From NCBI GenBank assembly GCA_965237475.1, contig OZ250140.1, positions 2,597,877 through 2,661,876 on the forward strand: a stretch of DNA of 64,000 bases. The letters run 5' to 3'. The position numbers and the translations under genes are program-made. Below are positions 2,721 to 54,904 of this stretch, in pieces (positions within the stretch are counted from its first letter, which is position 1; each line of letters begins with the position of its first letter). Below the pieces are notes generated by a model. It did not search any database. It worked only from the letters and a program-made list of their open reading frames with translations, and was not told the origin of the DNA. Source of the stretch: Dehalococcoidia bacterium (GTDB lineage: Bacteria > Chloroflexota > Dehalococcoidia > Bin125).

Positions 2721-3356
2721 TTGATGGAACCGCCGCTGACGTTTGACGGGCCGGAGTTCGGGGTGCGCGACCGGGTGCTCGTGCTCACGCACGGGGCGGG
2801 GTCTTCCTCCAGCCATCCGTCGCTGGCGGAGCTTGCGCGGCTGATTGGGGAGCGCGGGGTATCGGTGGCGCGGTTCGACTTTCCCTACATGCGCCGGGCC
2901 GCGCGGGCGGGCCGCCGGGCCTGGCCGCCCGACGACGAGGATGTTCTGACCAGCACCTGGATCGGGGCGATTCGGCAACTGCTGCCGCCGAAGCGGTTGG
3001 TGATCGGTGGCCGCTCGCTGGGCGGGCGGGTTGCTTCGATCGTGGCCGACGCCGCGGAGGTCGCGGGGCTGGTCTGCGTGAGCTATCCGTTTCATCCGCC
3101 GCGCCGCGCTGGGCCGGTACGCACGGCGCACCTGCGCAACATCGCGACGCCGACGCTGATCGTGCAGGGCGAGCGGGACCCGTACGGCTCGCGCGAGGAG
3201 GTGTCGGGCTACAATCTCTCGCCGAACATTCGGGTGCACTGGATCGCCGATGGCGACCACGGGCTGACGCCGCGCAAACGCTCGGGCGTGACCGAGCAGG
3301 GCAACCTGGTGAGCGCGGCGGACGCGATCGCGGAGTTTGTCGGGGGGCTGAGCTAG
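2721..3356 (+). CDS. Alpha/beta-hydrolase fold protein (KANL3/Tex30-like predicted hydrolase)
   Basis: 211 aa; nucleophile elbow GGRSLGG; C-terminal Asp/His (IADGDHG). Confidence 0.55.
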   Translation: MMEPPLTFDGPEFGVRDRVLVLTHGAGSSSSHPSLAELARLIGERGVSVARFDFPYMRRAARAGRRAWPPDDEDVLTSTWIGAIRQLLPPKRLVIGGRSLGGRVASIVADAAEVAGLVCVSYPFHPPRRAGPVRTAHLRNIATPTLIVQGERDPYGSREEVSGYNLSPNIRVHWIADGDHGLTPRKRSGVTEQGNLVSAADAIAEFVGGLS

Positions 3357-3357
3357 G

Positions 3358-3785
3358 CATCCTCTGAACAGGTCGGATGCCATCTCCCCCCGCGGAGCGG
3401 GGGGAGATGTCACGGAGTGACAGGGGGGGGGGCGAGCCCGCTCGCCCACATACAGCTGCGCAGGTGGGTCGGGACCGAAGCCCCCCTCTGCCCCCTGCCT
3501 GCGCAGGGGCAGGCTTCGGCATCTCCTCCCGCCGAGCGGGGGGAGAAGGGATTCGAGTTGTTCCGTGGATTCCGAGGAACGCTCCAAAGGACACCATCTC
3601 CCCCCGCTCTGCGGGGGGAGATGTCACGGAGTGACAGAGGGGGGCTGCCGCGCGTAATGCCGGCTGACCGCGACGCACTCCCCCTCTGCCTTCGGCATCT
3701 CCCCCTCGGGGGGCGATATTGGAAGGGGATTGGATCCCGCTGACCACTCGATGTGGTGAGGGGGTCCGACGTGTTCGGAGGATTC
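3358..3785. repeat. Cluster of palindromic REP/MITE-like elements (TCTCCCCCCGC-GAGC-GGGGGGAGA hairpins, GTCACGGAGTGACAG, a degenerate TCAATG-loop hairpin)
   Basis: The same modules recur at 5725-6655, 30275-30480, 42690-42866 and 58765-58990; each hairpin is an inverted repeat visible directly in the sequence. Confidence 0.8.
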
Positions 3786-4331
3786 CTACGTGCGCCAGAC
3801 GACGTGGTTGGGGGAGCGTTGGGCGGGGGGGATGCGGACGCCTTTGGGGGCGTAGCCGAGGTAGATATAGCCGACGATCCGGTCCTGCTGGCCGATGCCG
3901 AACCAGCGCTTGGCGGCGCTTGAGAGCGCGAGCGCGCCGGTGCTCCACTTGGCGGCGAGGCCGTGGGCGTGGGCGGCGAGCAGCAGATTTTGGGTCGCGC
4001 AGCAGCAGGCGGCGTAGTCCTCGAGGTCGCGCACCGGGTCGTCGGGCGAGGCGGTCTGAGTGACGGCGACGAACAGCGGGGCGCGCTTCAGCTTGCTGCG
4101 CGGGTCCTTCGCGGGGCTCGCGCCGGCTGCTTCGAGCTCGGCCCAGACGGCGTCGGCGAGGGCGTCGCGGGCGTCGCCCTGCACGACGTGGAAGCGCCAC
4201 GGCTCGGTGTGCTTGTGATTGGGCGCCCAGACCGCGCTGTCGATCAGCTCCTCGACCAGTCCGCGCGGGACCGGATCATCGCGAAACGCGCCGATCGTGC
4301 GACGCTCGCGGATTGCCTCAACGACATCCAT
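3786..4331 (-). CDS. Nitroreductase-family flavoprotein
   Basis: Starts MDVVEAIRERRTIGAFRDDPVP; ...AVWAPNHKHTEPWRFHVV...; the ORF-track start at 4499 was trimmed to the internal ATG at 4331. Confidence 0.65.
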   Translation of the reverse strand: MDVVEAIRERRTIGAFRDDPVPRGLVEELIDSAVWAPNHKHTEPWRFHVVQGDARDALADAVWAELEAAGASPAKDPRSKLKRAPLFVAVTQTASPDDPVRDLEDYAACCCATQNLLLAAHAHGLAAKWSTGALALSSAAKRWFGIGQQDRIVGYIYLGYAPKGVRIPPAQRSPNHVVWRT

Positions 4332-4389
4332 CACGCACCTCCGGGCGGCAGAACGGGTCTGCAGCCGGCCAAGCCATAGGATCACCGCC

Positions 4390-5679
4390 ATGTTACGCGC
4401 TGGCGCACGACAGACGTTCGCCGCTTTCGGCGTGCCGGCGTTCCGGTTGCACTGGGCGTGCACGGTCGCGGCGTTCATCTCGTTCATGATGTCGTTCACG
4501 GTTCAGAGCGTGATCACGTATGAGCTGACTGGTTCGAACGCGAGCGTGGCGTTCGTGGCGGCGGGCAGCGGCGTGGCATGGTTCTTCGTGGGGCCGATCG
4601 CCGGGGCGCTGGCGGATCGGCTGCCGAAGCGGCGGCTGCTGGTCATCGCTCAGACGCTGATCGCGATCAACTTCGGCGTGCTCGCGTTCCTGGTGTTGAG
4701 CGATGACATCAGTGTGGCGTGGCTGACCGCGAGTAGCTTTCTGCTGGGCAGCTGCTTTGCGTTCACGGGGCCGACCCGGCGGGCGTACGTGGCCGACCTG
4801 GTGCCGAGCCGCCTGGTCGGCAATGCGGTGGTGTTGCTGCAGTCGGCGCTGAACTTCCCGCAGATCGTTGGGCCGGCGATCGCCGCGGGGCTGATCAGCA
4901 TCGCCTTTGTCGGCGCGGGCGGCGCCTACGTCTTCATGTTCGCCGTGCTCGCGCTGACCATCCTCTCGCTCGGGCTGATGCCGCAGGGGCCGCCGCGCAA
5001 CGTCATGCGGCGCGGCGTCTACCGCGAGATCGTGCTCGGGCTGCGCTATGCGGCGTCGCATTCGCGGATTCGGCTGTTGCTGGGCTCGCTGCTGCTGATC
5101 TCGGTGGCGGGCGGGTCGTATCAGATTCTGCTGCCAGGGTTGCTGGTGAACGCGCTGGGGGTGGAATCGGTGCAGCTTGGGCTGCTGCAGGCGTTCGCGG
5201 GAATTGGCTCGTTCACGGTGGGCGTGGCGGTTGCGGGGGTGGTGGGGACGCGCTGGTCGGGGCGGGTGATGTACGTCATGGCGGTGGGGTTCGGGCTCGG
5301 GGTGCTGCTGCTGGGGATTACGCCGAGCGTCGTGGTCGCGTTTCCGATCATGTTTCTGCTGGGGGCGGGCTTTAGCGCGTTTCAGGCGATCAATACGGCG
5401 GAGGTGTTGATTCAGGCGGATCCCGAGTACCACGGACGGCTGACTTCACTCACGTTTGTGCCGTTCGGGGTGCAGAGCATGGCGGGGCTGGCGTTCGGCA
5501 ATCTGGCGGACGGGATCGGGGAGCGCTCGATGCTGGTGATCATGGGCATCTCCGCGATGGTGATCAGCGTGGTGTCGGTTGCGCTCTACGAGCGTATCCG
5601 GGCCCCCGCCCGCACCACCCTGGCGCTCGCTCCCGACGAGCCGGGGGTCGCTCCGCCACCGTCGTCGCGCGCAGAGTGA
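4390..5679 (+). CDS. MFS transporter
   Basis: About 12 predicted hydrophobic helices; GPIAGALADRLPKRR loop motif between TM2 and TM3; transcribed divergently from the nitroreductase. Confidence 0.65.
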   Translation: MLRAGARQTFAAFGVPAFRLHWACTVAAFISFMMSFTVQSVITYELTGSNASVAFVAAGSGVAWFFVGPIAGALADRLPKRRLLVIAQTLIAINFGVLAFLVLSDDISVAWLTASSFLLGSCFAFTGPTRRAYVADLVPSRLVGNAVVLLQSALNFPQIVGPAIAAGLISIAFVGAGGAYVFMFAVLALTILSLGLMPQGPPRNVMRRGVYREIVLGLRYAASHSRIRLLLGSLLLISVAGGSYQILLPGLLVNALGVESVQLGLLQAFAGIGSFTVGVAVAGVVGTRWSGRVMYVMAVGFGLGVLLLGITPSVVVAFPIMFLLGAGFSAFQAINTAEVLIQADPEYHGRLTSLTFVPFGVQSMAGLAFGNLADGIGERSMLVIMGISAMVISVVSVALYERIRAPARTTLALAPDEPGVAPPPSSRAE

Positions 5680-5724
5680 TGGGGGCGGCCGCGAGCATTT
5701 TGGTGCGAATTCACATCTGTTAGC

Positions 5725-6655
5725 ACGGATCAGGCCCCCCTCTGTCCCTACGGGACATCTCCCCCCGCGGAGCGGGGGGAGAGGGGATCCGACGTGCTCT
5801 GCCCTGCCCCGCGGGAGGAGAAGGGGAACCGGATTCCGCTGACCACTCAATGTGGTCAGCGGGGGGAGAGGGGATCCGACTTGTTCAGAGGATTCCTGGC
5901 AGAGGCTGTTGCAGAAACCCCATGTGCGTCATTCCCGCGCAGGCGGGAATCCATGCGACCACCCAAGATGTGCGAGCGGCTGCGTGGTGTTGACGGCCTT
6001 CCGGAAGGGCCGAGCCGCGATGGCGAGGATCCAGCGCCGTCGGCCGTTCGGGGCGCCAACGGGCATTGGTCGGCTCGCCTGGATTCCTGCCTGCGCAGGA
6101 ATGACGGAGGAGGGCGCAGGAATGACGGAGGAGGGCGCAGGAATGACGGAGGAGGGCGCAGGAATGACGGAGGAGGGCGCAGGAATGGCGGAGAAGGACG
6201 CACGGAATGACGCGAGAGGACGCACCGCACCACGGAGGAGGACTCACGGCGCCACTGAGGAGGACGCGCGGGGATGATGGGAGAGGGCGCGGGAGTGACG
6301 GAACACGGGGTTCTGAGACAGTCTCTGCACGGCGGGGGAGATGGCGAAGGTAGAGGGGGTCGGCCGCGACTCAGCGGCGTGGCTGTATCTGGTCGGACAG
6401 GATCAGGCCCCCCTCTGTCCCTACGGGACATCTCCCCCCGCGGAGCGGGGGGAGAGGGGATCCGACGTGCTCTGCCCTGTCCTGCGGGAGGAGAAGGGGA
6501 TCCGGATTCCGCTGACCACTCAATGTGGTCAGCGGGGGGAGAGGGGATCCGACCTGCTCTGCCCTGCCCCGCGGGAGGAGAAGGGGATCCGGATTCCGCT
6601 GACCACTCAATGTGGTCAGCGGGGGGAGAGGGGATCCGACTTCTTTGGCAGCCGG
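5725..6655. repeat. Large composite intergenic repeat region: an 88-bp minisatellite (1.7 copies at 5731-5880, 2.6 copies at 6404-6640) flanking REP family B (GTCATTCCCGCGCAGGCGGGAATCC) and a 21-bp tandem repeat
   Basis: CGGGGGGAGAGGGGATCCGAC recurs at 5771, 5859, 6442, 6532 and 6620 with 88-90 bp spacing, and the intervening sequence is nearly identical in every unit; the ORFs predicted here are spurious (they translate to ...SVIPAQAGIQ...). Confidence 0.8.
6104..6215. repeat. 21-bp tandem repeat GCAGGAATGACGGAGGAGGGC, about 5 copies (REP family B derived)
   Basis: Directly visible: gcaggaatgacggaggagggc x4, then diverged copies. Confidence 0.85.
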
Positions 6656-8608
6656 CTAGATGTAGCGGGCGAACCAGGTGGTGAGGCGGTCGTAGTACTC
6701 CTGGCGGAGGCTGGGGTGTGCGACGCGGAGCATCAGGTGGGAACCGCCGGGGAAGCGGACGAACTCGACGGGCTTGCCGCGGTCGCGGAGGGCGACGAAA
6801 TACTCCTCGCTCTGGGTGATGGGAACGCGATGGTCGGCGTCGCCGTGCAGCAGCAGGACCCGCGCCGTCACGTTCGCCGCGTAGCTGATCGGCGAACGTT
6901 CGCGGTACCACTCGCGGGCCTCGTCGGGGCGGCCGCTCCACTGATAGCGGCCCCACGACGCCCCGATGTCGGACGTGCCGTACATCGACTCCAGATTGAC
7001 CACGGGCGCGCCCACGACCGCGGCCTTGAAGCGGTCGGTGTGCCCGATCAGCCACGACGACATGTAACCGCCGTAGGAGTAGCCGTGTACGCCCAGGCGC
7101 TCGGCGTCGACGTAGGGGCGCGCGCAGACGTGGTCGAGCGCGGCGAGCAGGTCGAGCGAGTCCTCGCCGCCCCAATCGCCGATCACGGCGTGGGTGAAGT
7201 CGGAGCCAAACGTCGACGAGCCGCGCGGGTTGACGAACAGCACCAGGAAGCCGGCGCCGGCGATGATCTGGTGCAGCGCCGTGAAGCCCTCGCCAAACCA
7301 GCCGTGCGGGCCGCCGTGAATCTCGAGCACCAGCGGGTACCGCTGCGAGGCATCGAAGCCGGGCGGGAAGATCAGGCCGCAGGGAATCGGCACGCCCTCG
7401 CGCACGATCGTGAACCACTCGACCGCGCCGGGCTCGTGCGCTTCGAGGTAATCGGCGTTGACCGAGGTCAGGCATGTCGCCGCGGCGCCGGCGGTCTGCG
7501 TGACCAGCTCGCCCGGCTGGCCGGGGTTGGTCACGATCGCCGCGATGCGGGATCCGTCCGCCGAGATATCGACGCCGTTGATTAGCTCAGCCTCCGCGCG
7601 AATGACCTCCGCCTCGCCGTGGCCGTCGGGTGAGACGCGCCACACGCCGGAGCGCCCGCAGGCGTCGGCGGCGAAGCTGATGCCGGCCTCGCTCCAGCTA
7701 ATCGGCGGCGGCGAGGCGAGCGGGAAGAAGCCGCTCTGCGGGGTCAGGCCGCCGTCGGTGAGCCGCGTGCGGCGTCCCGAGTAGCGGTGGATGCGGGTGA
7801 GATAGGCCTGCTGGGGCTCGGCGACCTCGGTGATCGCGACCGCGAGCTCACGTCCGTCGGGCGACCACGCCGCCCGTCCGGCGGATTGGGCCCCGGGGGT
7901 GAGCCGCTCGATGACGCCGCCGCGGGCGGGCATCACGCAAAGTTCGCTGCCGAACGGGCGGCGGCGGTCGCGCTCCACCGAGCGGTCGGTGGCGAACGCG
8001 ATCCAGCGGCCGTCGGGCGAGATGACGGGGTGCGCGTTGTTGTAGGGACCGCTGGTGAGCTGAGTGGCGGCGCCGCTGCCCGCGTCGATGCTGAAGAGGT
8101 GATGCCAGGCGCCGACGCGATAGCCGAGCGTGTCGCCGCGGTAGTAGACCTCGCGCAGCACGGTGGTGCGCGGCGCGCCGTCGTCCTCGATGAGACGCTG
8201 GGGGTCGACGTCGACGACCGCGATCAGGCCGCGGCCGTCGGGCAGCCAGACGCAGGATTCCAGCTGATATGGCAGGTCGGTCAGTCGCTGGGCCTCGCCG
8301 CCGGTCGTCGGCAGGAGCCAGAGCTGGCGCGACGCGTCGGCGTCGGCTGCGCGCAGAAACGCGAGCTGCGAGCCATCGGGCGACCAGGCCGGCGAGCCGT
8401 CGCGCGGGCCGGCGGTCAGACGGCGGTCGTCGCCGCCGGCGAACGCGACGGCGCGGATGTGGGACTCGCTGCTCATCGTCTCGCGCGAAACCTGGGCGTG
8501 GACGTAGGCGACCGTTTCGCCGTCGGGCGAGAGGGCGGGGCTGCTCACGGATGGCAGGTCGAAGACGATCTCCGAGCCAATCGGCTCGCGCGCTGTCGGG
8601 CTGGTCAT
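6656..8608 (-). CDS. S9-family serine peptidase (acylaminoacyl-peptidase / prolyl-oligopeptidase type): N-terminal TolB-like beta-propeller plus C-terminal alpha/beta hydrolase
   Basis: Repeated SPDG... propeller motifs; catalytic GYSYGGYM; HGDADHRVP; start trimmed to the ATG at 8608, preceded by GGAG. Confidence 0.75.
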   Translation of the reverse strand: MTSPTAREPIGSEIVFDLPSVSSPALSPDGETVAYVHAQVSRETMSSESHIRAVAFAGGDDRRLTAGPRDGSPAWSPDGSQLAFLRAADADASRQLWLLPTTGGEAQRLTDLPYQLESCVWLPDGRGLIAVVDVDPQRLIEDDGAPRTTVLREVYYRGDTLGYRVGAWHHLFSIDAGSGAATQLTSGPYNNAHPVISPDGRWIAFATDRSVERDRRRPFGSELCVMPARGGVIERLTPGAQSAGRAAWSPDGRELAVAITEVAEPQQAYLTRIHRYSGRRTRLTDGGLTPQSGFFPLASPPPISWSEAGISFAADACGRSGVWRVSPDGHGEAEVIRAEAELINGVDISADGSRIAAIVTNPGQPGELVTQTAGAAATCLTSVNADYLEAHEPGAVEWFTIVREGVPIPCGLIFPPGFDASQRYPLVLEIHGGPHGWFGEGFTALHQIIAGAGFLVLFVNPRGSSTFGSDFTHAVIGDWGGEDSLDLLAALDHVCARPYVDAERLGVHGYSYGGYMSSWLIGHTDRFKAAVVGAPVVNLESMYGTSDIGASWGRYQWSGRPDEAREWYRERSPISYAANVTARVLLLHGDADHRVPITQSEEYFVALRDRGKPVEFVRFPGGSHLMLRVAHPSLRQEYYDRLTTWFARYI

Positions 8609-8711
8609 CGGGGGCTCCGATCGGGCTGGTTCTGGTGCGCGCAGGCTAGGCGTCGGCGGCGCTCGCGTATCTTGCGGCCAGTGAACCGACCAGCAAGGCG
8701 GAGGCGACGGG

Positions 8712-9473
8712 ATGTCCACAATCGAACGAGACGGCGTCGAAATCTTCTACGAGGCGCAGGGCGAGGGCCCGGCGATTCTGCTCAGCCACGGCTACGGCGC
8801 GACCGCCCAGATGTGGGCGGGGCAGCTGGCGCCGCTGTCCGAGCAGCACCGCGTGATCGCCTGGGACATGCGCGGGCACGGGCGGACTGCGAGCCCGGAG
8901 GACCCCGCCTGCTACAGCGAGGCGGAGACTGTCGCCGACATGGCGGCGATCCTCGACGCCGAGGGCGCGGACGACGCGATCATCGCCGGCCTATCGCTCG
9001 GCGGCTATATGTCGCTCGCCTTCAACCTCGTGCATCCCGAGCGGACGCGTGCGCTGATGCTGTTCGACACGGGCCCGGGCTACAACAACCCGCGCGGGCG
9101 TGAGGGCTGGAACGCGAACTTCGCCGTTCCCCGAGCCGAAGCGCTGGAGCAGCGCGGGCTCGACGCGCTGGGCGGGTCGGAGGAGGTGCAGGTGTCCACG
9201 CATCGTTCCGCCCTCGGCCTGGCCCACGCCGCGCGCGGGATGCTCGCGCAGTTCGACAACCGCGTGATCCAGTCGCTCGCGGGCATCGAGAAGCCGACGC
9301 TCGTCTTGGTCGGCGAGCACGATGAGCCGTTCCTCGGCTCGACCGATTACATCCACAACAAGGTCGTGGGCTCGAGCAAGGCGGTGATCGCCAACGCCGG
9401 TCATGCGGCCAACATCGACAACCCCGCGGACTTCAACCGGACGGTGCTCGATTTCCTCGCTACTCTCCCGTAG
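8712..9473 (+). CDS. Alpha/beta-fold hydrolase
   Basis: 253 aa; GLSLGGYMS nucleophile elbow; HGYGAT N-terminal motif; C-terminal His (NAGHAANIDNP). Confidence 0.65.
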   Translation: MSTIERDGVEIFYEAQGEGPAILLSHGYGATAQMWAGQLAPLSEQHRVIAWDMRGHGRTASPEDPACYSEAETVADMAAILDAEGADDAIIAGLSLGGYMSLAFNLVHPERTRALMLFDTGPGYNNPRGREGWNANFAVPRAEALEQRGLDALGGSEEVQVSTHRSALGLAHAARGMLAQFDNRVIQSLAGIEKPTLVLVGEHDEPFLGSTDYIHNKVVGSSKAVIANAGHAANIDNPADFNRTVLDFLATLP

Positions 9474-20246: not shown

Positions 20247-20462
20247 GGGTGGTCCCCAAGCCTTCGCTGAGCGAGGCGAGGGTAGCACTGGCCAAGCGTT
20301 GTGGGCGCGGCCGTTGGGGTTCTGCCCCTGAGGAGCGCTTTGGGAGGGGGATTCCGCAGCACACTCAATGTGTGCTGCGGGGGCCGAAGGGCTCGGGGCG
20401 GGACGCTGCCTCGCGCGGCAACCAGCTCGCGTGGGCGGCTGTCAGAAGTTTTCTCATGGCCT

Positions 20463-21839: not shown

Positions 21840-22142
21840 GGGCTTGTGTCCATCCAGATCGACTCGGCGAGGCGATCAAACAGGGACGCGACGTTGGTTG
21901 TTGCCGTCTGGCTGGCTGACACGATCTTAGGGTAGCATTCCTTGGCCGCCTCGAGGTCGAGGCGAATCCAGGCGTTGTGGGCGGCGTGGTTGGGGTTCTC
22001 CCGCTCAGGCGCTTCGCGTCAGCTCCCCCGCGCGGGGAGCGCTTTGGGAGGGGATTCCGCAGCACACTCAATGTGTGCTGCGGGGGGGAGCCATCAGAGG
22101 TCGCGGCTGTCAGAAGTTTCCTCACGGCAGTTATTCCTCCCA

Positions 22143-23696: not shown

Positions 23697-23963
23697 GGTG
23701 AGGCGTCCATCCAGATCGATTCGGCGAGTCGGTCGAAGAGGGCTGCGATGTCAGCTGTTCCCGTCTGGCTGGTTGACACGATCTTAGGGCAGCAATCCTC
23801 GGTCGCCTCGAGGTCGAGGCGAATCCAGGCGTTGTGGGCGGCGTGGTTGGGGTTCTCCCCCTCAGGCGCTTCGCGCCAGCGGAGCCTTTCGGGAGGGGAT
23901 TCCGCAGCACACTTAATGTGTGCTGCGGGAGGGAGCCTTTTGGGAGGGGATTCCGCAGCACAC

Positions 23964-24827
23964 TTAGTGTGTGCTGCGGGGGCCGAAGGGCTCGGGGCGG
24001 AAGGGGTCGTCGCGGGCGCGGAGGAAGGCGCCGAAGCCGCCGTCGCGGCGGGCTTGGTCGAGATGCTCGACCTCGGGGCCGTCGGCGGAGGCTTCGACGA
24101 TGGTCGAGAGCAGGGAGCCGACGTTGAGCGCGTTGCGCAGGCCCATCGCCTCGAGGCCGCGCGCGGTGATCAGCTTGTTGTAGCGAATCGAGTCGGAGGG
24201 GACACGCGCAAGCCGCTCGGCCAGCGCGTGGGACCGGTCCATGAGGTCCTCGGCGGGCGCGATCTCGTTGATCACGCCGATTCGCAGCGCCTCCTCGGCG
24301 TCGAAATGGTCGCCCGTCAGCGCGTAGCGATGCGCGACCTTCCAGCCGGCGAGAATCGCGAACAGCACCGACGAGTTCGAGACCATCCGCACCTCGGGCT
24401 GGGCGAACACGGCGCGATCGGACGCGATCGTGATGTCGGAGGCGAGCGCGTACCAGAACCCGCCGCCGATGCACCAGCCGTTGACCGCGGCGATAATCGG
24501 GGTCTCCAGGGTCATCAGGTGCATCATCATGTCGGGGTTGCGGGAGGAGAAGTGGTGCCAGCGGCGCAGGTGGGCGGAGACGGGCGTGCGCGGGCCGCCG
24601 ACGGCGCTGTCGATGCCGCCATCGATGTTGTAGCCGGAGGAGAAGGCGCGGCCGGCGCCGGTCACGATGATCGCGCGCGCCGAGGGGTCGGCGTTGGCCT
24701 CGTCGAGCGCGAGGTGGAACTCATCCTCGAGGGCCGGGGTGATCGCGTTTAGCGTCTCGGGGCGGTTCCAGGTGATGGTCACCACCGGCCCGTCCTGCTG
24801 GTAGAGCACGTTTTCGTAGTCGGGCAT
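23964..24827 (-). CDS. Enoyl-CoA hydratase/isomerase (crotonase) family
   Basis: ITWNRPETLNAI...IIVTGAGRAFSSGYNI oxyanion-hole motifs. Confidence 0.75.
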   Translation of the reverse strand: MPDYENVLYQQDGPVVTITWNRPETLNAITPALEDEFHLALDEANADPSARAIIVTGAGRAFSSGYNIDGGIDSAVGGPRTPVSAHLRRWHHFSSRNPDMMMHLMTLETPIIAAVNGWCIGGGFWYALASDITIASDRAVFAQPEVRMVSNSSVLFAILAGWKVAHRYALTGDHFDAEEALRIGVINEIAPAEDLMDRSHALAERLARVPSDSIRYNKLITARGLEAMGLRNALNVGSLLSTIVEASADGPEVEHLDQARRDGGFGAFLRARDDPFRPEPFGPRSTH

Positions 24828-42672: not shown

Positions 42673-42689
42673 AGCGGCGCCAGGAATCC

Positions 42690-42866
42690 TCTGAACAACT
42701 CTCCCCCCGCTTTGCGGGGGGAGATGCCGAAGGCAGAGGGGGGCTGCGGTGCCGACTCACGGGCGTGGCTGTATCGGGCGAAGCGGGGACGCCCCCCTCT
42801 GTCCCTACGGGACATCTCCCCCCGCAGAGCGGGGGGAGAGGGGATCCGACTTGTTCAGAGGATTCC
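42690..42866. repeat. REP/MITE-like repeat (family A); the adjacent IS is inserted into it
   Basis: ...ccccctctgtccctacgggacatctccccccgcagagcggggggagaggggatccgacttgttcagaggattcctggcag matches the 5731-5905 unit. Confidence 0.75.
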
Positions 42867-44058
42867 TGGCAGGCTGCTGAAGAAGGGCCCCATGCACCGC
42901 GCTTCCCCGATCTTGGTGCGAGGAGTCACAACTCGACCAGCTCGGCGAGTGGATTCCCTAGTCTCACAGACGAACCGCGACAGATGATTGAGGTGAGGCC
43001 ATGGGAGCGCGCTACTCGCAGCTGGATCTGGAGGAGCGATGTGCGGTTGCCCGGTTACAGGCCGAGGGGCGCTCGGTCCGGCAGATCGCTGCAGCTCTGG
43101 ATCGCGCGCCATCGACGGTTGCTCGGGAGCTGAAACGCAACGCGGGGCGCGATGGCTACCGTCCGGGCTACGCCCAGGAGCAGGCCCGGGCGCGGCGCTG
43201 GCGCGGCTCGCGGCTGGAGCGCGACGCGGGCCTGCGCGAGCGGGTGCTGAGCGAGCTGGCGCGCGGGCTCTCGCCGCAGCAGGTCTCGGGCCGGCTGGCG
43301 CGCGAGGCCGGCCGGGCGGTGATCTCGCACGAGAGCATCTACCGCTTCATCTACGCCCAGATCTCACGCGCCAAGCCGAGCCGTCAGGGCGGTTGGCGCC
43401 ACTATCTGCCGCGGGCCAAGGCGAAGCGCGGCTGGCGCGGTCGCAAGGGCGGCAGCTCGGTTGACCACATTCAGCTGCGGCGGCCCTTGAGCGAGCGTCC
43501 GGCCGCCGCCGCCGACCGGCTCCAGGCCGGCCACTGGGAGGCCGACCTGATGCTCTTCGGACGCTCCGGTCCGGCCCTCTTGATGCTGCACGAGCGCCAC
43601 TCGCGGCTGCTGCTGGCGCTGCCGGTCGCGAGCAAGGCGGCGGCCCCGGTCGCGCGCCTGCTGGTCGCGCTGCTGCGCGGCTGGCCGCCGGCCCTGCGCC
43701 GCACGGTCAGCTTCGACAACGGCAACGAGTTCGCCCAGCACCGCGCGCTGCACCGGCTCGGGGTCGAGACGTTCTTCTGCGACGCCTACGCGCCCTGGCA
43801 GAAGGGCGGGATCGAGAACGCGATCGGCCGCCTGCGCCGGGTCCTGCCGCGCCGCCTCGAGCTCGCCCAACTCAGCATCGAACGGCTCGTGCAGGTGCTG
43901 CAGCTGTACAACAACACCCCGCGCAAGTGCCTCGACTACCTCACCCCGGCCGAAGTCTTCGGCCAGCAACTGGCGCACTTGCAATGTGAACCCACCTTCC
44001 CGCCTGCGCGGGAATGACGGAATTGGCGGGTTGCCCGACTTCTCCAGCAGCCTCCTAG
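42866..44058 (+). mobile_element. IS30-family insertion sequence (~1.19 kb) with imperfect terminal inverted repeats
   Basis: Left end GGCAGGCTGCTGAAGAAGGGCC (42869-42890) versus the reverse complement of the right end GCTAGGAGGCTGCTGGAGAAGTCG (44036-44059); single transposase ORF. Confidence 0.7.
43001..44017 (+). CDS. IS30-family DDE transposase
   Basis: N-terminal HTH (LDLEERCAVARLQAEGRSVRQIAAALDRAPSTVARELKRN); catalytic region with HWEADLM. Confidence 0.8.
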   Translation: MGARYSQLDLEERCAVARLQAEGRSVRQIAAALDRAPSTVARELKRNAGRDGYRPGYAQEQARARRWRGSRLERDAGLRERVLSELARGLSPQQVSGRLAREAGRAVISHESIYRFIYAQISRAKPSRQGGWRHYLPRAKAKRGWRGRKGGSSVDHIQLRRPLSERPAAAADRLQAGHWEADLMLFGRSGPALLMLHERHSRLLLALPVASKAAAPVARLLVALLRGWPPALRRTVSFDNGNEFAQHRALHRLGVETFFCDAYAPWQKGGIENAIGRLRRVLPRRLELAQLSIERLVQVLQLYNNTPRKCLDYLTPAEVFGQQLAHLQCEPTFPPARE

Positions 44059-52289: not shown

Positions 52290-52415
52290 GATGCCGCGAA
52301 GCGTGGAACGCGGGCCCACCAGATGGGGCGGATCGATTCCCGCTTGCGCGGGAATGACGGGCGAGGGCGCGGCAATGACGGGAGAGCGGCTTCTGAGACA
52401 GGCTCCTACGGAATC
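52290..52415. repeat. REP family B-related repeat (GCGCGGGAATGACGG ... TTCTGAGACAGG)
   Basis: Similar to 6280-6330 and to the 3' end of the IS30 element (44003-44020). Confidence 0.6.
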
Positions 52416-53600: not shown

Positions 53601-54464
53601 ATGCCTTACCTTGGCGGCGAGCGGAGGTCGACGATGGAACAGCGGCTCACTGTTCGGATCGCTGGCCCAGGCGTGCCGGTGGGGAAGATCGGGCTCAAAG
53701 ATCTACAGCGAATCGTGCATCCGCTTGAGCAGGCGGTGCGGGCGCTGCTCCCCGCAAACGAGCCGCCGCCGCCAACAGGCGGCCGTCCGCGTAAGCCGAC
53801 TGTACGGTTGTTGCTCTCGGGAATCGAGCCGGGTTCGGCGGTAGCGAACTTGGAGCTTGACGCGGATCTGGCCCCTACGTTGGACAGTTTTGCTCCCGAT
53901 CCCCTGGGACGACTTGTGGCCGGGGCGGCGGCTGGTGGCGGGAAGCTACCCGCCGACTCACGTCGTCATTTGGAGCGGATGGCTCGCAGCCTTCCTCGTG
54001 GCTTCGAATATGTGGAGTTGACGCTGCCAGACCGAGCGATGTCGGCGCGAATCTATCGTCATGATCCTGAAGAAGCACTGAGCGAAACGGAAGCAGTTCT
54101 CACGATCTCAGGCCGCTTGGTCTCCATCGACTTTCGAACTGGAACAGCGCGTCTACAGATTCAGTCAGGCGGCAAGCGAAAAGTGGGAACGCAGCTGGTA
54201 CCGCTGCGATTCCCAGATGAGTTGGCGAACGACATGCAGCGCTGCGCCCGCCAGCAAGTGTCCGTCCATGGTGTCGCAACGATGACCGCGGCCCGCGTCG
54301 TCGAGTCACTCGCGGTGCAGCGCATTCATGTGGACCTTGACGATCGCCGTGGACTCTGGGCTCCCAAGCGATTCAGATGGCCTAGCGCTGACGAACGCCT
54401 CGATAACGTGGATATGGACGAGTTCTTACGAACGTCACGCGATGATGGCGAGGACGACGTGTGA
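53601..54464 (+). CDS. Hypothetical protein (287 aa), translationally coupled to the downstream PIN-domain gene
   Basis: No recognisable family; GTGA start/stop overlap with 54461..54904. Confidence 0.4.
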   Translation: MPYLGGERRSTMEQRLTVRIAGPGVPVGKIGLKDLQRIVHPLEQAVRALLPANEPPPPTGGRPRKPTVRLLLSGIEPGSAVANLELDADLAPTLDSFAPDPLGRLVAGAAAGGGKLPADSRRHLERMARSLPRGFEYVELTLPDRAMSARIYRHDPEEALSETEAVLTISGRLVSIDFRTGTARLQIQSGGKRKVGTQLVPLRFPDELANDMQRCARQQVSVHGVATMTAARVVESLAVQRIHVDLDDRRGLWAPKRFRWPSADERLDNVDMDEFLRTSRDDGEDDV

Positions 54465-54904
54465 TCTTCGGAGCGCATGTTGACATCGTGGTCGACACGA
54501 ACATCGTCGTTTCGCTGCTGTCGAGTCATCCGGATGAGATCGCTCGCGCGGAGCTGTACCGATCACACATCGAGGGCAGGGCGATCGCGATCTCGTTCCA
54601 GACCGAAGCGGAACTGATGGTGCAGCGTGAGGCGCAGGGCTGGGACGGCACAAAACTCATGACACAAATGAGCAACTATGAGATAGTACCACTGTCAGAT
54701 GACTTGCGTGGCTGTTACATCACGTTGCGGTCCGAGGCGATCCGCAGAAACAGGCGCAATGAGGGACCGTTGTTGGGCCCCGCGGACGGCTGGATCGCAG
54801 CCGCCGCGCTGATGCTGGATTGCCCCCTCGTTACACACGATCGCAAACTCTCCAAGAGCCCACTGATCGTTGCCATCACCGAACTGGACGCTCAGGGACC
54901 GTAG
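54461..54904 (+). CDS. PIN-domain nuclease (VapC-like toxin)
   Basis: VVDTNIVVS...TE.EL...DGWIAAAALMLDCPLVTHD carries the PIN acidic residues. Confidence 0.65.
   Translation: MIFGAHVDIVVDTNIVVSLLSSHPDEIARAELYRSHIEGRAIAISFQTEAELMVQREAQGWDGTKLMTQMSNYEIVPLSDDLRGCYITLRSEAIRRNRRNEGPLLGPADGWIAAAALMLDCPLVTHDRKLSKSPLIVAITELDAQGP

Follow-up and report, generated by a model that had tools for sequence, protein, structure and literature searches.

A mosaic of hairpin repeats with an NTS/SRM-type core in an intergenic gap of a Dehalococcoidia genome

Repeat content of the gap between the MFS and S9 peptidase genes

A non-coding gap of 976 bp (positions 5680-6655) was analyzed in a 64,000-nucleotide stretch of contig OZ250140.1 from a Dehalococcoidia bacterium (assembly GCA_965237475.1; host G+C 67%), referred to below as the window and numbered from its first letter. 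The gap lies between a gene for an MFS transporter (4219-5679, plus strand; Pfam MFS_3 at 5.9e-31, also MFS_1; stop codon TGA at 5677-5679) and a gene for an S9 peptidase (6656-8719, minus strand; Pfam Peptidase_S9 at 5.8e-52), which are convergent and whose 3' ends face it; among S9 homologues whose source is named, the closest come from Chloroflexota. None of the five open reading frames (ORFs; 120-539 aa) overlapping the gap matched a Pfam family, and an Rfam search of the whole window returned no RNA family, in agreement with a preliminary description, made from the sequence alone, that had seen no credible gene here. Neither terminator-like sites with U tracts nor promoter-like sites were found in the gap, and a plasmid similarity search found nothing. 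What fills the gap is an intergenic mosaic composed of three hairpin-repeat families, of the same kind as the neisserial intergenic mosaic element (NIME) arrays of Neisseria and the bacterial interspersed mosaic element (BIME) arrays of E. coli and other enterobacteria.

Tandem Repeats Finder (TRF) delimited an 87-bp unit in 2.3 copies with 97% matches (6444-6640) and a 21-bp unit in 6.2 copies (6093-6224). In addition, a direct repeat of 160 nt relates 5727-5886 to 6400-6559 at 97% identity, with a third copy offset by 87 nt, and an inverted repeat of 32 nt relates 5927-5958 to 6075-6106, its arms lying 116 nt apart. The constituent sequences exceed their expected counts in the window by a wide margin: 11 matches versus 0.03 for CGGGGGGAGAGGGGATCCGAC, four versus 0 for the 25-mer of the palindrome called REP-B (REP, repetitive extragenic palindrome) and six versus 0.01 for the 21-mer. 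The preliminary description had parsed the same sequence as 1.7 and 2.6 copies of an 88-bp unit in direct orientation, flanking an inner segment with REP-B and five 21-bp repeats. The repeats and their direct orientation are real, but the period is 87 bp and each arm consists of a 63-nt right arm of a second family, REP-A, followed by one or two tandem 87-bp units, arm and unit having only their last ~21 nt in common. The 21-bp array is likewise present, with degenerate copies reaching ~6312, and REP-B occurs in two copies in inverted orientation, which had gone unnoticed, as had the near-identity of REP-B to the NTS/dRS3 sequence of Neisseria and the nature of the 21-bp repeat as half of that hairpin.

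The fold of the whole region 5680-6655 has a z-score of -5.5 and those of the individual modules range from -2.2 to -5.9, predictions that support strong single-stranded DNA (ssDNA) structure throughout. A template/variable repeat pair like that of diversity-generating retroelements was ruled out, since the differences between the 160-nt copies are, on inspection, not specific to adenine.

The NTS/SRM-type core and ssn-like genes in relatives

Ssn-type nucleases are exemplified by SsnA of Neisseria, a 94-aa single-domain GIY-YIG protein that binds the hairpin of the Neisseria Transformation Sequence (NTS) only as ssDNA, cuts a few nucleotides 5' of its CGTC tag and does not act on RNA or double-stranded DNA; ssn genes (small GIY-YIG, cd10448) are typically flanked by hairpins, in an NTS-ssnA-NTS layout resembling that of an insertion sequence (IS), and cleavage does not require both hairpin halves to be on one strand (Chenal et al. 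2025, PMC11893778). The core of the gap comprises the following features:

5927-5954, plus strand: NTS/SRM-type hairpin, a CGTC-tagged REP; exact dRS3 pattern ATTCCC-N8-GGGAAT at 5931-5950
5959-6074, no strand: spacer of 116 bp between the NTS hairpins; equivalent of the NIME 'RS' element and position of ssn in full cassettes
6079-6106, minus strand: second NTS/SRM-type hairpin, inverted; 26 of 28 positions match the NTS consensus
6093-6312, plus strand: tandem array of 21-bp half-NTS units, GCGCAGGAATGACGG plus AGGAGG; four exact copies, then progressively degenerate ones

The palindrome at 5927-5954, CGTCATTCCCGCGCAGGCGGGAATCCAT, agrees with the Neisseria NTS consensus CGTCATTCCCGCGMAVGCGGGAATCYRG, as given in PMC11893778, at 27 of its 28 positions. 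It also conforms exactly to the published pattern of the SRM (Ssn-related motif), HGTCWYN(0-2)YYVSBRHN(0-5)WNVSBRGN(0-2)RNCYNB. Shuffled sequences yield 0.76 matches to this degenerate pattern per window, so that the pattern by itself is weak evidence. Four sites of the window lie within two mismatches of the 28-nt consensus, and the NTS hairpins at 43992-44019 and 52332-52359 match it at 26 positions each. Within the second core hairpin, 6083-6102 (ATTCCT-N8-AGGAAT) is a near copy of dRS3. Both core hairpins are predicted to fold as ssDNA into an 8-bp stem with a 4-nt loop (z = -2.15 and -2.21), and their CGTC tags point outward. The 21-bp unit consists of the 3' half of the hairpin, the tag and six further bases; on the strand presumably read by Ssn, this corresponds to the 5' half, the CGTC tag and upstream bases. 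The 'variable core' of the preliminary description is a separate, recognizable unit, an NTS/SRM hairpin pair with a half-site array, and this unit (~5927-6312) is a gene-less version of the hairpin cassette that surrounds ssn, with 116 bp in place of the gene. Gene-less two-hairpin units were also identified in two loci of relatives (such loci being denoted by L and a number), with a 96-nt spacer in L077 and one of ~119 nt in L123 once an IS is removed.

Full cassettes are present in relatives. Intact genes for GIY-YIG proteins of 97-102 aa, assigned by the Pfam GIY-YIG family only, lie between the same flanking hairpins in L125-L130 (SB0664_bin_15 and ENA sponge assemblies), L131 and L198, and two hairpins flank a GIY-YIG pseudogene in L120 (OZ242948.1). 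An ssn-like gene occupies the same site, between rhodanese and acetyl-CoA synthetase genes, in L125 (1501-1794), L198 (4001-4294) and, as the pseudogene, L120 (6642-6914); such a pattern is reminiscent of a 'domesticated' gene kept in single copy and inherited vertically. In L125, L131 and L120, outward arrays of half-sites with a period of 21-24 nt flank the ssn-like genes on either side. Half-site arrays also stand beside the IS in L123 and L124, in L014 downstream of a GIY-YIG paralogue whose hairpin is of another type (ATACCCGCG), and around a third paralogue with yet another hairpin type in L068, where the half-site motif scan is inapplicable and the array was recognized by inspection. 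In each of these two paralogues (L068 1250-2040 and L014 7100-8000) the flanking hairpin type is a distinct one, accompanied by tandem half-sites of its own that repeat every 16-24 nt. Given that Ssn tolerates a hairpin whose halves lie on different strands, several first halves arrayed next to a single second half could serve as alternative substrates. The main text of the Ssn paper (PMC11893778) uses neither the word 'tandem' nor 'Chloroflex', and outward tandem half-site arrays therefore appear to be undescribed there. A separate array in a relative, at 5030-5500 of L110 (OZ242948.1), consists of about four copies of a 136-bp unit with alternating CGTC-type hairpins, ATTCCCGCCTTCGCGGGAAT and ATTGCCGCGCCCCGTCGCGGCAAT, and is a true NIME-like array.

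Elsewhere in the window, NTS hairpins are part of two further features:

42950-44022, plus strand: insertion sequence of the IS30 family, with a transposase gene at 43001-44017 (Pfam HTH_38 and rve), inside the NTS hairpin at 43992-44019
52332-52409, minus strand: solo NTS hairpin with two half-site units (half-sites at 52346-52386), ending at the stop codon of an ADH gene

The IS30-family element is 99.8% identical to a copy in L123 over exactly 42950-44022, the flanks being unrelated, and it is found at the same position of an NTS hairpin in three unrelated genomic contexts (the window, L123 2950-4022 and L124 2952-4021). The L123 copy disrupts the right-hand hairpin of a two-hairpin unit that becomes complete again once the IS is removed; the IS is therefore the guest of the hairpin and not its parent. 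It is most likely a hairpin-targeting IS, with a target duplication that is possibly TCC or TTCC, and the alternative, in which the hairpin is the right end of the IS itself, keeps some residual probability. Derivation of the gap core from the IS30-family element by internal deletion was rejected on the basis of the three-copy alignment; the IS ends differ from the repeats that bracket the core.

Arms, terminal repeats and the locus in relatives

The arms on either side of the core contain the following features, in which U87 denotes the 87-bp unit:

5680-5730, plus strand: degenerate REP-A doublet remnant comprising left arm and spacer; adjoins the stop codon of the MFS gene
5731-5793, plus strand: REP-A right arm; small hairpin GTCCC-TAC-GGGAC, main hairpin TCTCCCCCCGC-GGA-GCGGGGGGAGA, tail GGGGATCCGAC
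5794-5880, plus strand: one copy of U87; hairpin C at 5836-5862; terminates in the REP-A hairpin's 3' half and tail
6334-6466, plus strand: REP-A doublet; truncated left arm, 46-nt spacer, complete right arm at 6404-6466
6467-6640, plus strand: two tandem copies of U87; hairpin C at 6509-6535 and 6596-6622

The main hairpin of REP-A, TCTCCCCCCGC-N4-GCGGGGGGAGA, defines a dispersed doublet family that is like the REPINs (REP doublets forming hairpins). In 24 aligned copies from many genomes the conserved doublet spans ~125 bp, with a left arm CCTCTCCCCCCGC-loop-GCGGGGGGAGATGCCGAAGGCAGAGGGGGGC, a spacer of ~22 nt and a right arm GCCCCCCTCTGTCCCTACGGGACATCTCCCCCCGC-loop-GCGGGGGGAGAGGGGA, and inverted hairpin arms were found 10-40 nt apart in 19 pairs; this layout is REPIN architecture. 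Doublets with a 46-nt spacer and outer terminal inverted repeats (TIRs) are confined to the lineage of the window. The arm at 5731-5793, whose predicted ssDNA fold has an energy of -22.4 kcal/mol (z = -3.6), is the same arm as in the 24 aligned copies, which come from other Chloroflexota. The doublet at 6334-6466 (fold z = -2.6) is 84.5% identical to 42717-42856 over 142 nt and 89% identical to the corresponding sequence in L001, whose spacer is also matched by the spacer TTCACATCTG...GGATCAGG of the remnant at 5680-5730; at the edge of that remnant, 5669-5694 resembles 6344-6369 at 77%, with a spacing of 675. The fourth base pair of the small hairpin is variously C:G, A:T, G:C or T:A, and is complementary in 12 of 12 listed variants (52 copies).

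The distribution of REP-A was assessed by scanning its main hairpin against one genome per species. At least 120 stretches contained it, mostly from metagenome-assembled genomes (MAGs) of sponge-associated Chloroflexota/Dehalococcoidia such as SB0664_bin_15, RHO2_bin_60, IRC2_bin_8 and OZ242948.1. All ten REP-A hairpins of the window are intergenic, genes between widely spaced REP-A arms are ordinary metabolic genes, and an orthologous REP-A site is still occupied in L081, from a relative that is 78% identical. As the preliminary description had noted, the clusters at about 3358, 30275, 42690 and 58765 share modules with the gap, and the modules are thus dispersed rather than restricted to this locus; REP-A arms without U87 lie at 3383, 30347, 42815 and 58906. 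Four REP-A hairpins were also seen on L064 (VXML01000041.1, 3.4 kb), a sequence from the same sponge study binned as Gemmatimonadetes; either the contig was mis-binned or the repeat has passed between symbionts sharing a host.

Hairpin C, CCGCTGACCAC-TCAAT-GTGGTCAGCGG, has a predicted ssDNA fold of -14.6 kcal/mol (z = -4.9). It forms tandem arrays with periods of 46-70 bp in L123, and a search of JGI metagenomes gave 0 matches. A variant, CCGCAGCACAC-TCAAT-GTGTGCTGCGG (stem AGCACAC/GTGTGCT), differs from the gap copy by three fully compensated stem changes. This variant is located at 20349-20394, 22052-22087 and 23881-23980, in each case in the gap between tandem paralogous minus-strand genes for leucine-rich repeat (LRR) proteins, and the copy at 23881 is duplicated as a 51-bp tandem.

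The modules are framed by short terminal repeats (GGAATCCTCTGAACAA type); those in and around the gap, and in a reference element elsewhere in the window, are as follows:

5880-5898, minus strand: M190-type TIR CAGGAATCCTCTGAACAAG; one mismatch to 42681-42699
5899-5919, plus strand: left arm of the inverted repeat bracketing the core; pairs with 6308-6328 at 17 of 21 positions, the best in the window (assigned with moderate confidence)
6308-6328, minus strand: right arm, partner of 5899-5919; alternatively the degenerate left TIR of the next REP-A element
6640-6659, minus strand: terminal inverted-repeat-like sequence CTAGCCGGCTGCCAAAGAAG; four mismatches to 42866-42885; its CTAG holds the S9 stop codon
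42679-42870, plus strand: reference full-length M190 element, composed of TIR, REP-A doublet and TIR

The reference element is 192 bp long, with 23-nt TIRs that are 96% complementary. The gap sequence 5858-5924 aligns to 42828-42894 at 89.9%, and 42866-42885 pairs with 44039-44058 at 17 of 20 positions; the pairing of 5899-5919 with 6308-6328 recurs in the centroid fold of the whole region. Weaker M190-like TIRs are found at 3354/3575, 3788 and 58766. Element ends coincide with stop codons, leaving no spacer, at 3354, 3786, 6656, 44055 and 52406, and on inspection 8 of 14 ends are flanked by TA, which accounts for 904 dinucleotides in the 64,000 nt of the window (~1.4%). Of 44 genes in the window 19 end in TAG, often as CTAG, more than in any other stop codon. 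At the gap 3357-3785, both neighboring genes end in TGA in relatives with an empty site versus TAG in the window. The element was also considered as donor of the S9 stop codon, and this was rejected: the repeat-free loci L132 and L133 already have CTAG, so this stop context is ancestral. In L132, one CTAG (4456-4459) provides the stop codons of both convergent genes, S9 and MFS.

A scan of metagenomes for the M190 TIR gave 63 single matches with no inverted partner nearby, by rough estimate about the number that chance would give. One of the contigs, which we take to be gamma-proteobacterial (L167; JGI Ga0182738_1028885, 69% G+C), carries at 2706-2760 an exact 18-nt match that lies 2 nt from an NTS-like hairpin, CCGTCATCCTTGCGAAGGCGGGGATCC, and also adjoins a GTAG-type REP; the match may be due to chance, or the M190 'TIR' may travel with SRM hairpins.

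Syntenic loci were recovered from five relatives. The MFS and S9 genes overlap in L002 (S9 77% identical), meet at the single CTAG in L132 (71%) and are 28 bp apart in L133/L134 (74%). In L001, whose flanks are 92.5-94.8% identical, the gap measures 286 bp and holds one full REP-A element and one extra arm in a different module order, with no 87-bp units, NTS hairpins or 21-bp repeat. A second gap of the window, 3357-3785, comprises 429 bp of the same families and is reduced to 10-12 bp in L132 and L134. As the sites of relatives are empty and the content of L001 is different, the mosaic is derived and still changing: the comparison shows turnover at the level of modules between close relatives and a derived insertion state. 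The suggestion of the preliminary description that this could be a recombination hotspot is a fair portrayal of so polymorphic a locus, and the comparison of related strains that it had proposed did reveal empty sites.

Two other observations in the window concern different sequences. Within an ORF of 2482 aa with LRR and fibronectin-III domains (10690-18138, minus strand), one of the LRR and fibronectin-III proteins encoded in the window, 11695-12168 contains 12.2 copies of a 39-bp unit at 96% identity, probably a coding repeat of 13 residues. A PIN-domain ORF at 54461-54904 is preceded by an ORF without Pfam match (53601-54464) in a region missed by the GC3 coding filter; the two could be a toxin-antitoxin pair in a foreign segment.

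Origin and meaning of the mosaic

The explanation that we favor, with a probability of about 0.68, is that the gap is a mosaic of NIME/BIME type with a gene-less Ssn-cassette core, arms of REP-A and hairpin C, and short bracketing inverted repeats. The array would have grown in this lineage as entire modules entered what had been a spacer of zero length, and local tandem duplication would then have followed, by slippage, template switching or unequal exchange on hairpin-bearing repeats. In single-stranded DNA, the NTS hairpins would serve a resident Ssn nuclease as substrates, and the arms would belong to a REPIN-like population. The array would have no dedicated function for the flanking genes, and may incidentally terminate or stabilize their transcripts and promote recombination.

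Several observations weigh against this explanation. There is no ssn gene in the 64-kb window, the cognate nuclease being postulated from relatives only, and comparison of the Chloroflexota GIY-YIG proteins with NCBIfam and PDB sequences gave no informative name. No partner enzyme was found for REP-A or hairpin C; an ORF like those of REP-associated tyrosine transposases (RAYTs) or IS200 was not detected by motif regular expressions and tblastn in ~960 kb of sampled loci, a small sample probed with E. coli RAYT and IS608 TnpA query sequences. Complementarity of the short bracketing inverted repeats reaches only 80-85%, more than one parse is possible around 6308-6332, and on the evidence of three or four genomes the modules may have been moved by transposition, by recombination between dispersed copies, or by both.

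The mosaic resembles several known systems. NIMEs are defined by 20-bp ATTCCC-N8-GGGAAT repeats that flank a repeat of 50-150 bp (19-214 bp), in clustered intergenic arrays (PMC1797815). In the gap, a dRS3-RS-dRS3 unit is formed by the exact copy at 5931-5950 and the near copy at 6083-6102 around a spacer of about 116-132 bp; a dRS3 pair around a spacer is thus present, and the array keeps its position while varying in length and content. As in NIMEs (PMC1797815), the unit is embedded among other repeat families, another copy contains an IS and the length differs between relatives. The host, however, is a member of the Chloroflexota and not Neisseria, and NIME arrays had not been observed outside Neisseria in 2007 (PMC1797815); there is only one dRS3-RS-dRS3 unit, a minimal array, its flanks are REP-A and hairpin C in place of Correia elements, and the tandem array of half-hairpins falls outside the NIME description. 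The resemblance to NTS/SRM systems comprises the match at 27 of 28 consensus positions, the fit to the SRM pattern and the genes for GIY-YIG proteins of ~97 aa in an NTS-ssn-NTS layout in relatives, and a host that is an animal symbiont fits the enrichment noted for SRM-rich genomes (PMC11893778); the window unit differs in having no ssn between its hairpins, and the outward half-site arrays around four ssn-like genes are a further difference. As stem-loops with CGTC at one end that occur as dimers and in clusters, the hairpins are also like CGTC-tagged REPs, of which Neisseria CGTC-1 is dRS3, with 'no dedicated transposase' known at the time of that survey; CGTC repeats were listed there from five phyla that did not include Chloroflexi, for which only GTAG repeats were given (Di Nocera et al. 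2013, PMC3733652). REP-targeting IS are known from Pseudomonas, Neisseria and Sinorhizobium (PMC3733652), and the IS at 42950-44022 is similar in lying inside an NTS hairpin in three contexts.

The alternative that survives best concerns the arms, and holds that a single-copy RAYT (an HUH tyrosine transposase) encoded elsewhere copies the REP-A doublets, and perhaps hairpin C, as REPINs, which would make the array a BIME in the strict sense. We regard it as possible, though appreciably less probable than the explanation given above. REP-A presents the inverted hairpin pair with a short spacer (~22 nt), high copy number, clustering and strictly intergenic location of REPINs, compensatory changes preserve its hairpin, and the occupied orthologous site in the diverged relative L081 is what would be expected of vertically inherited REPINs (PMC3337134). 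Set against this are the missing RAYT/IS200-like ORF in the ~960 kb around REP-A copies, itself a weak test, and the absence of a GTAG tag at the hairpin foot; moreover, the NTS core would be left unexplained. The window lineage also differs from REPINs in its outer 19-nt TIRs and longer spacer.

A somewhat more doubtful proposal is that the TIR-bounded units (M190 and the core brackets) are miniature inverted-repeat transposable elements (MITEs) mobilized by a DDE transposase with a TA or CTAG target, as in IS630/Tc1-mariner or IS5 elements. TIRs of 19-23 nt, TA at 8 of 14 ends versus ~1.4% of dinucleotides, and the TGA stops of empty relatives versus TAG in the window beside 3357-3785 all speak for it, and it would explain the contact with TAG at the five stop codons where elements end. 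The modules, as represented by 42679-42870, do have the TIRs, size and lack of coding capacity of classical MITEs, so that the MITE reading of the preliminary description holds at this level and not for the 930-bp complex. No autonomous partner is at hand, however: the sole IS of the window, of the IS30 family, has different ends, and the 63 metagenome TIR matches came without inverted partners. At the best copy no target-site duplication is seen, its flanking CA...TG being an inverted and not a direct pair, which suggests that these four bases are part of the TIR. The CTAG at the end of S9 is ancestral, TAG leads among the stop codons of the window anyway, and the outer TIR is seen only in the window's own lineage.

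It is improbable that the hairpins are selected as terminators or mRNA 3'-end stabilizers of both convergent genes, or as a small structured RNA, even though they lie where two 3' ends converge and fold strongly on either strand, and even though REPs are reported to play such roles in other bacteria (PMC3733652). There are no U-tract terminators, promoters or Rfam family, and relatives do without a spacer, their genes even overlapping, which makes a dedicated role of this kind unlikely; furthermore, the content differs between close relatives, and Ssn is inactive on RNA (PMC11893778).

The preliminary description had pictured the whole ~930 bp as a single MITE moving as a unit, with the direct 88-bp repeats as its ends, an idea that is by now largely refuted and to which we attach very little probability. 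A 160-nt direct repeat at 97% does bracket the core and the site is empty in three relatives, but MITE ends are inverted, not direct, and these arms are composites of two dispersed families with local tandem duplication rather than element ends; nor do they qualify as target-site duplications, none of which is visible. The modules of the arms occur separately, as REP-A without U87, as do cores of this type at 43992 and 52332, neither the window nor the ~960 kb of related loci tested contains a second copy of the block, and L001 has only some of the modules, in another order. Least credible of all is that the tandem copy numbers are assembly artefacts, a known hazard of tandem repeats in what is probably a MAG, in view of the same families in independent assemblies (L001, L123, L125-L131 and NCBI MAGs), the point differences between copies and the shortness of the arrays relative to long reads.

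An extension of the favored explanation, which we put forward as speculation with low odds, is that the outward half-hairpin arrays are footprints of GIY-YIG (Ssn-type) cassettes copying themselves and their gene-less derivatives. Such arrays are found at the 21-bp repeat of the window and at every ssn-like gene examined, across three hairpin types (L125/L131/L120, L014 and L068), and arguably the 87-bp units, as repeats of a 3' half-hairpin of REP-A, belong with them. By analogy with the known enzyme, Ssn would nick ssDNA 5' of the tag, and hairpin-mediated template switching or slippage during repair would then multiply the half-sites. If this were so, NTS-ssn-NTS units would form a class of their own among mobile elements, driven by a nuclease and leaving MITE-like offspring, analogous to RAYT/REPIN with a different enzyme, and a near-identical 28-nt site in Neisseria and Chloroflexota would mean either spread of the enzyme-site pair or its extreme constraint.

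The NTS/SRM core appears to be new to Chloroflexota and the half-site arrays apparently unreported. A Neisseria-type repeat grammar, with dRS3/NTS hairpins, mosaic arrays and an IS in a hairpin, is also found in sponge-symbiotic Chloroflexota, down to a near-identical 28-nt site, which supports the view that pairs of Ssn nuclease and hairpin are a general feature of symbiont genomes that shapes genome change. The half-site arrays bear on how CGTC-type REP hairpins multiply, and long 'empty' gaps of this kind in these MAGs are repeat mosaics and not missed genes.

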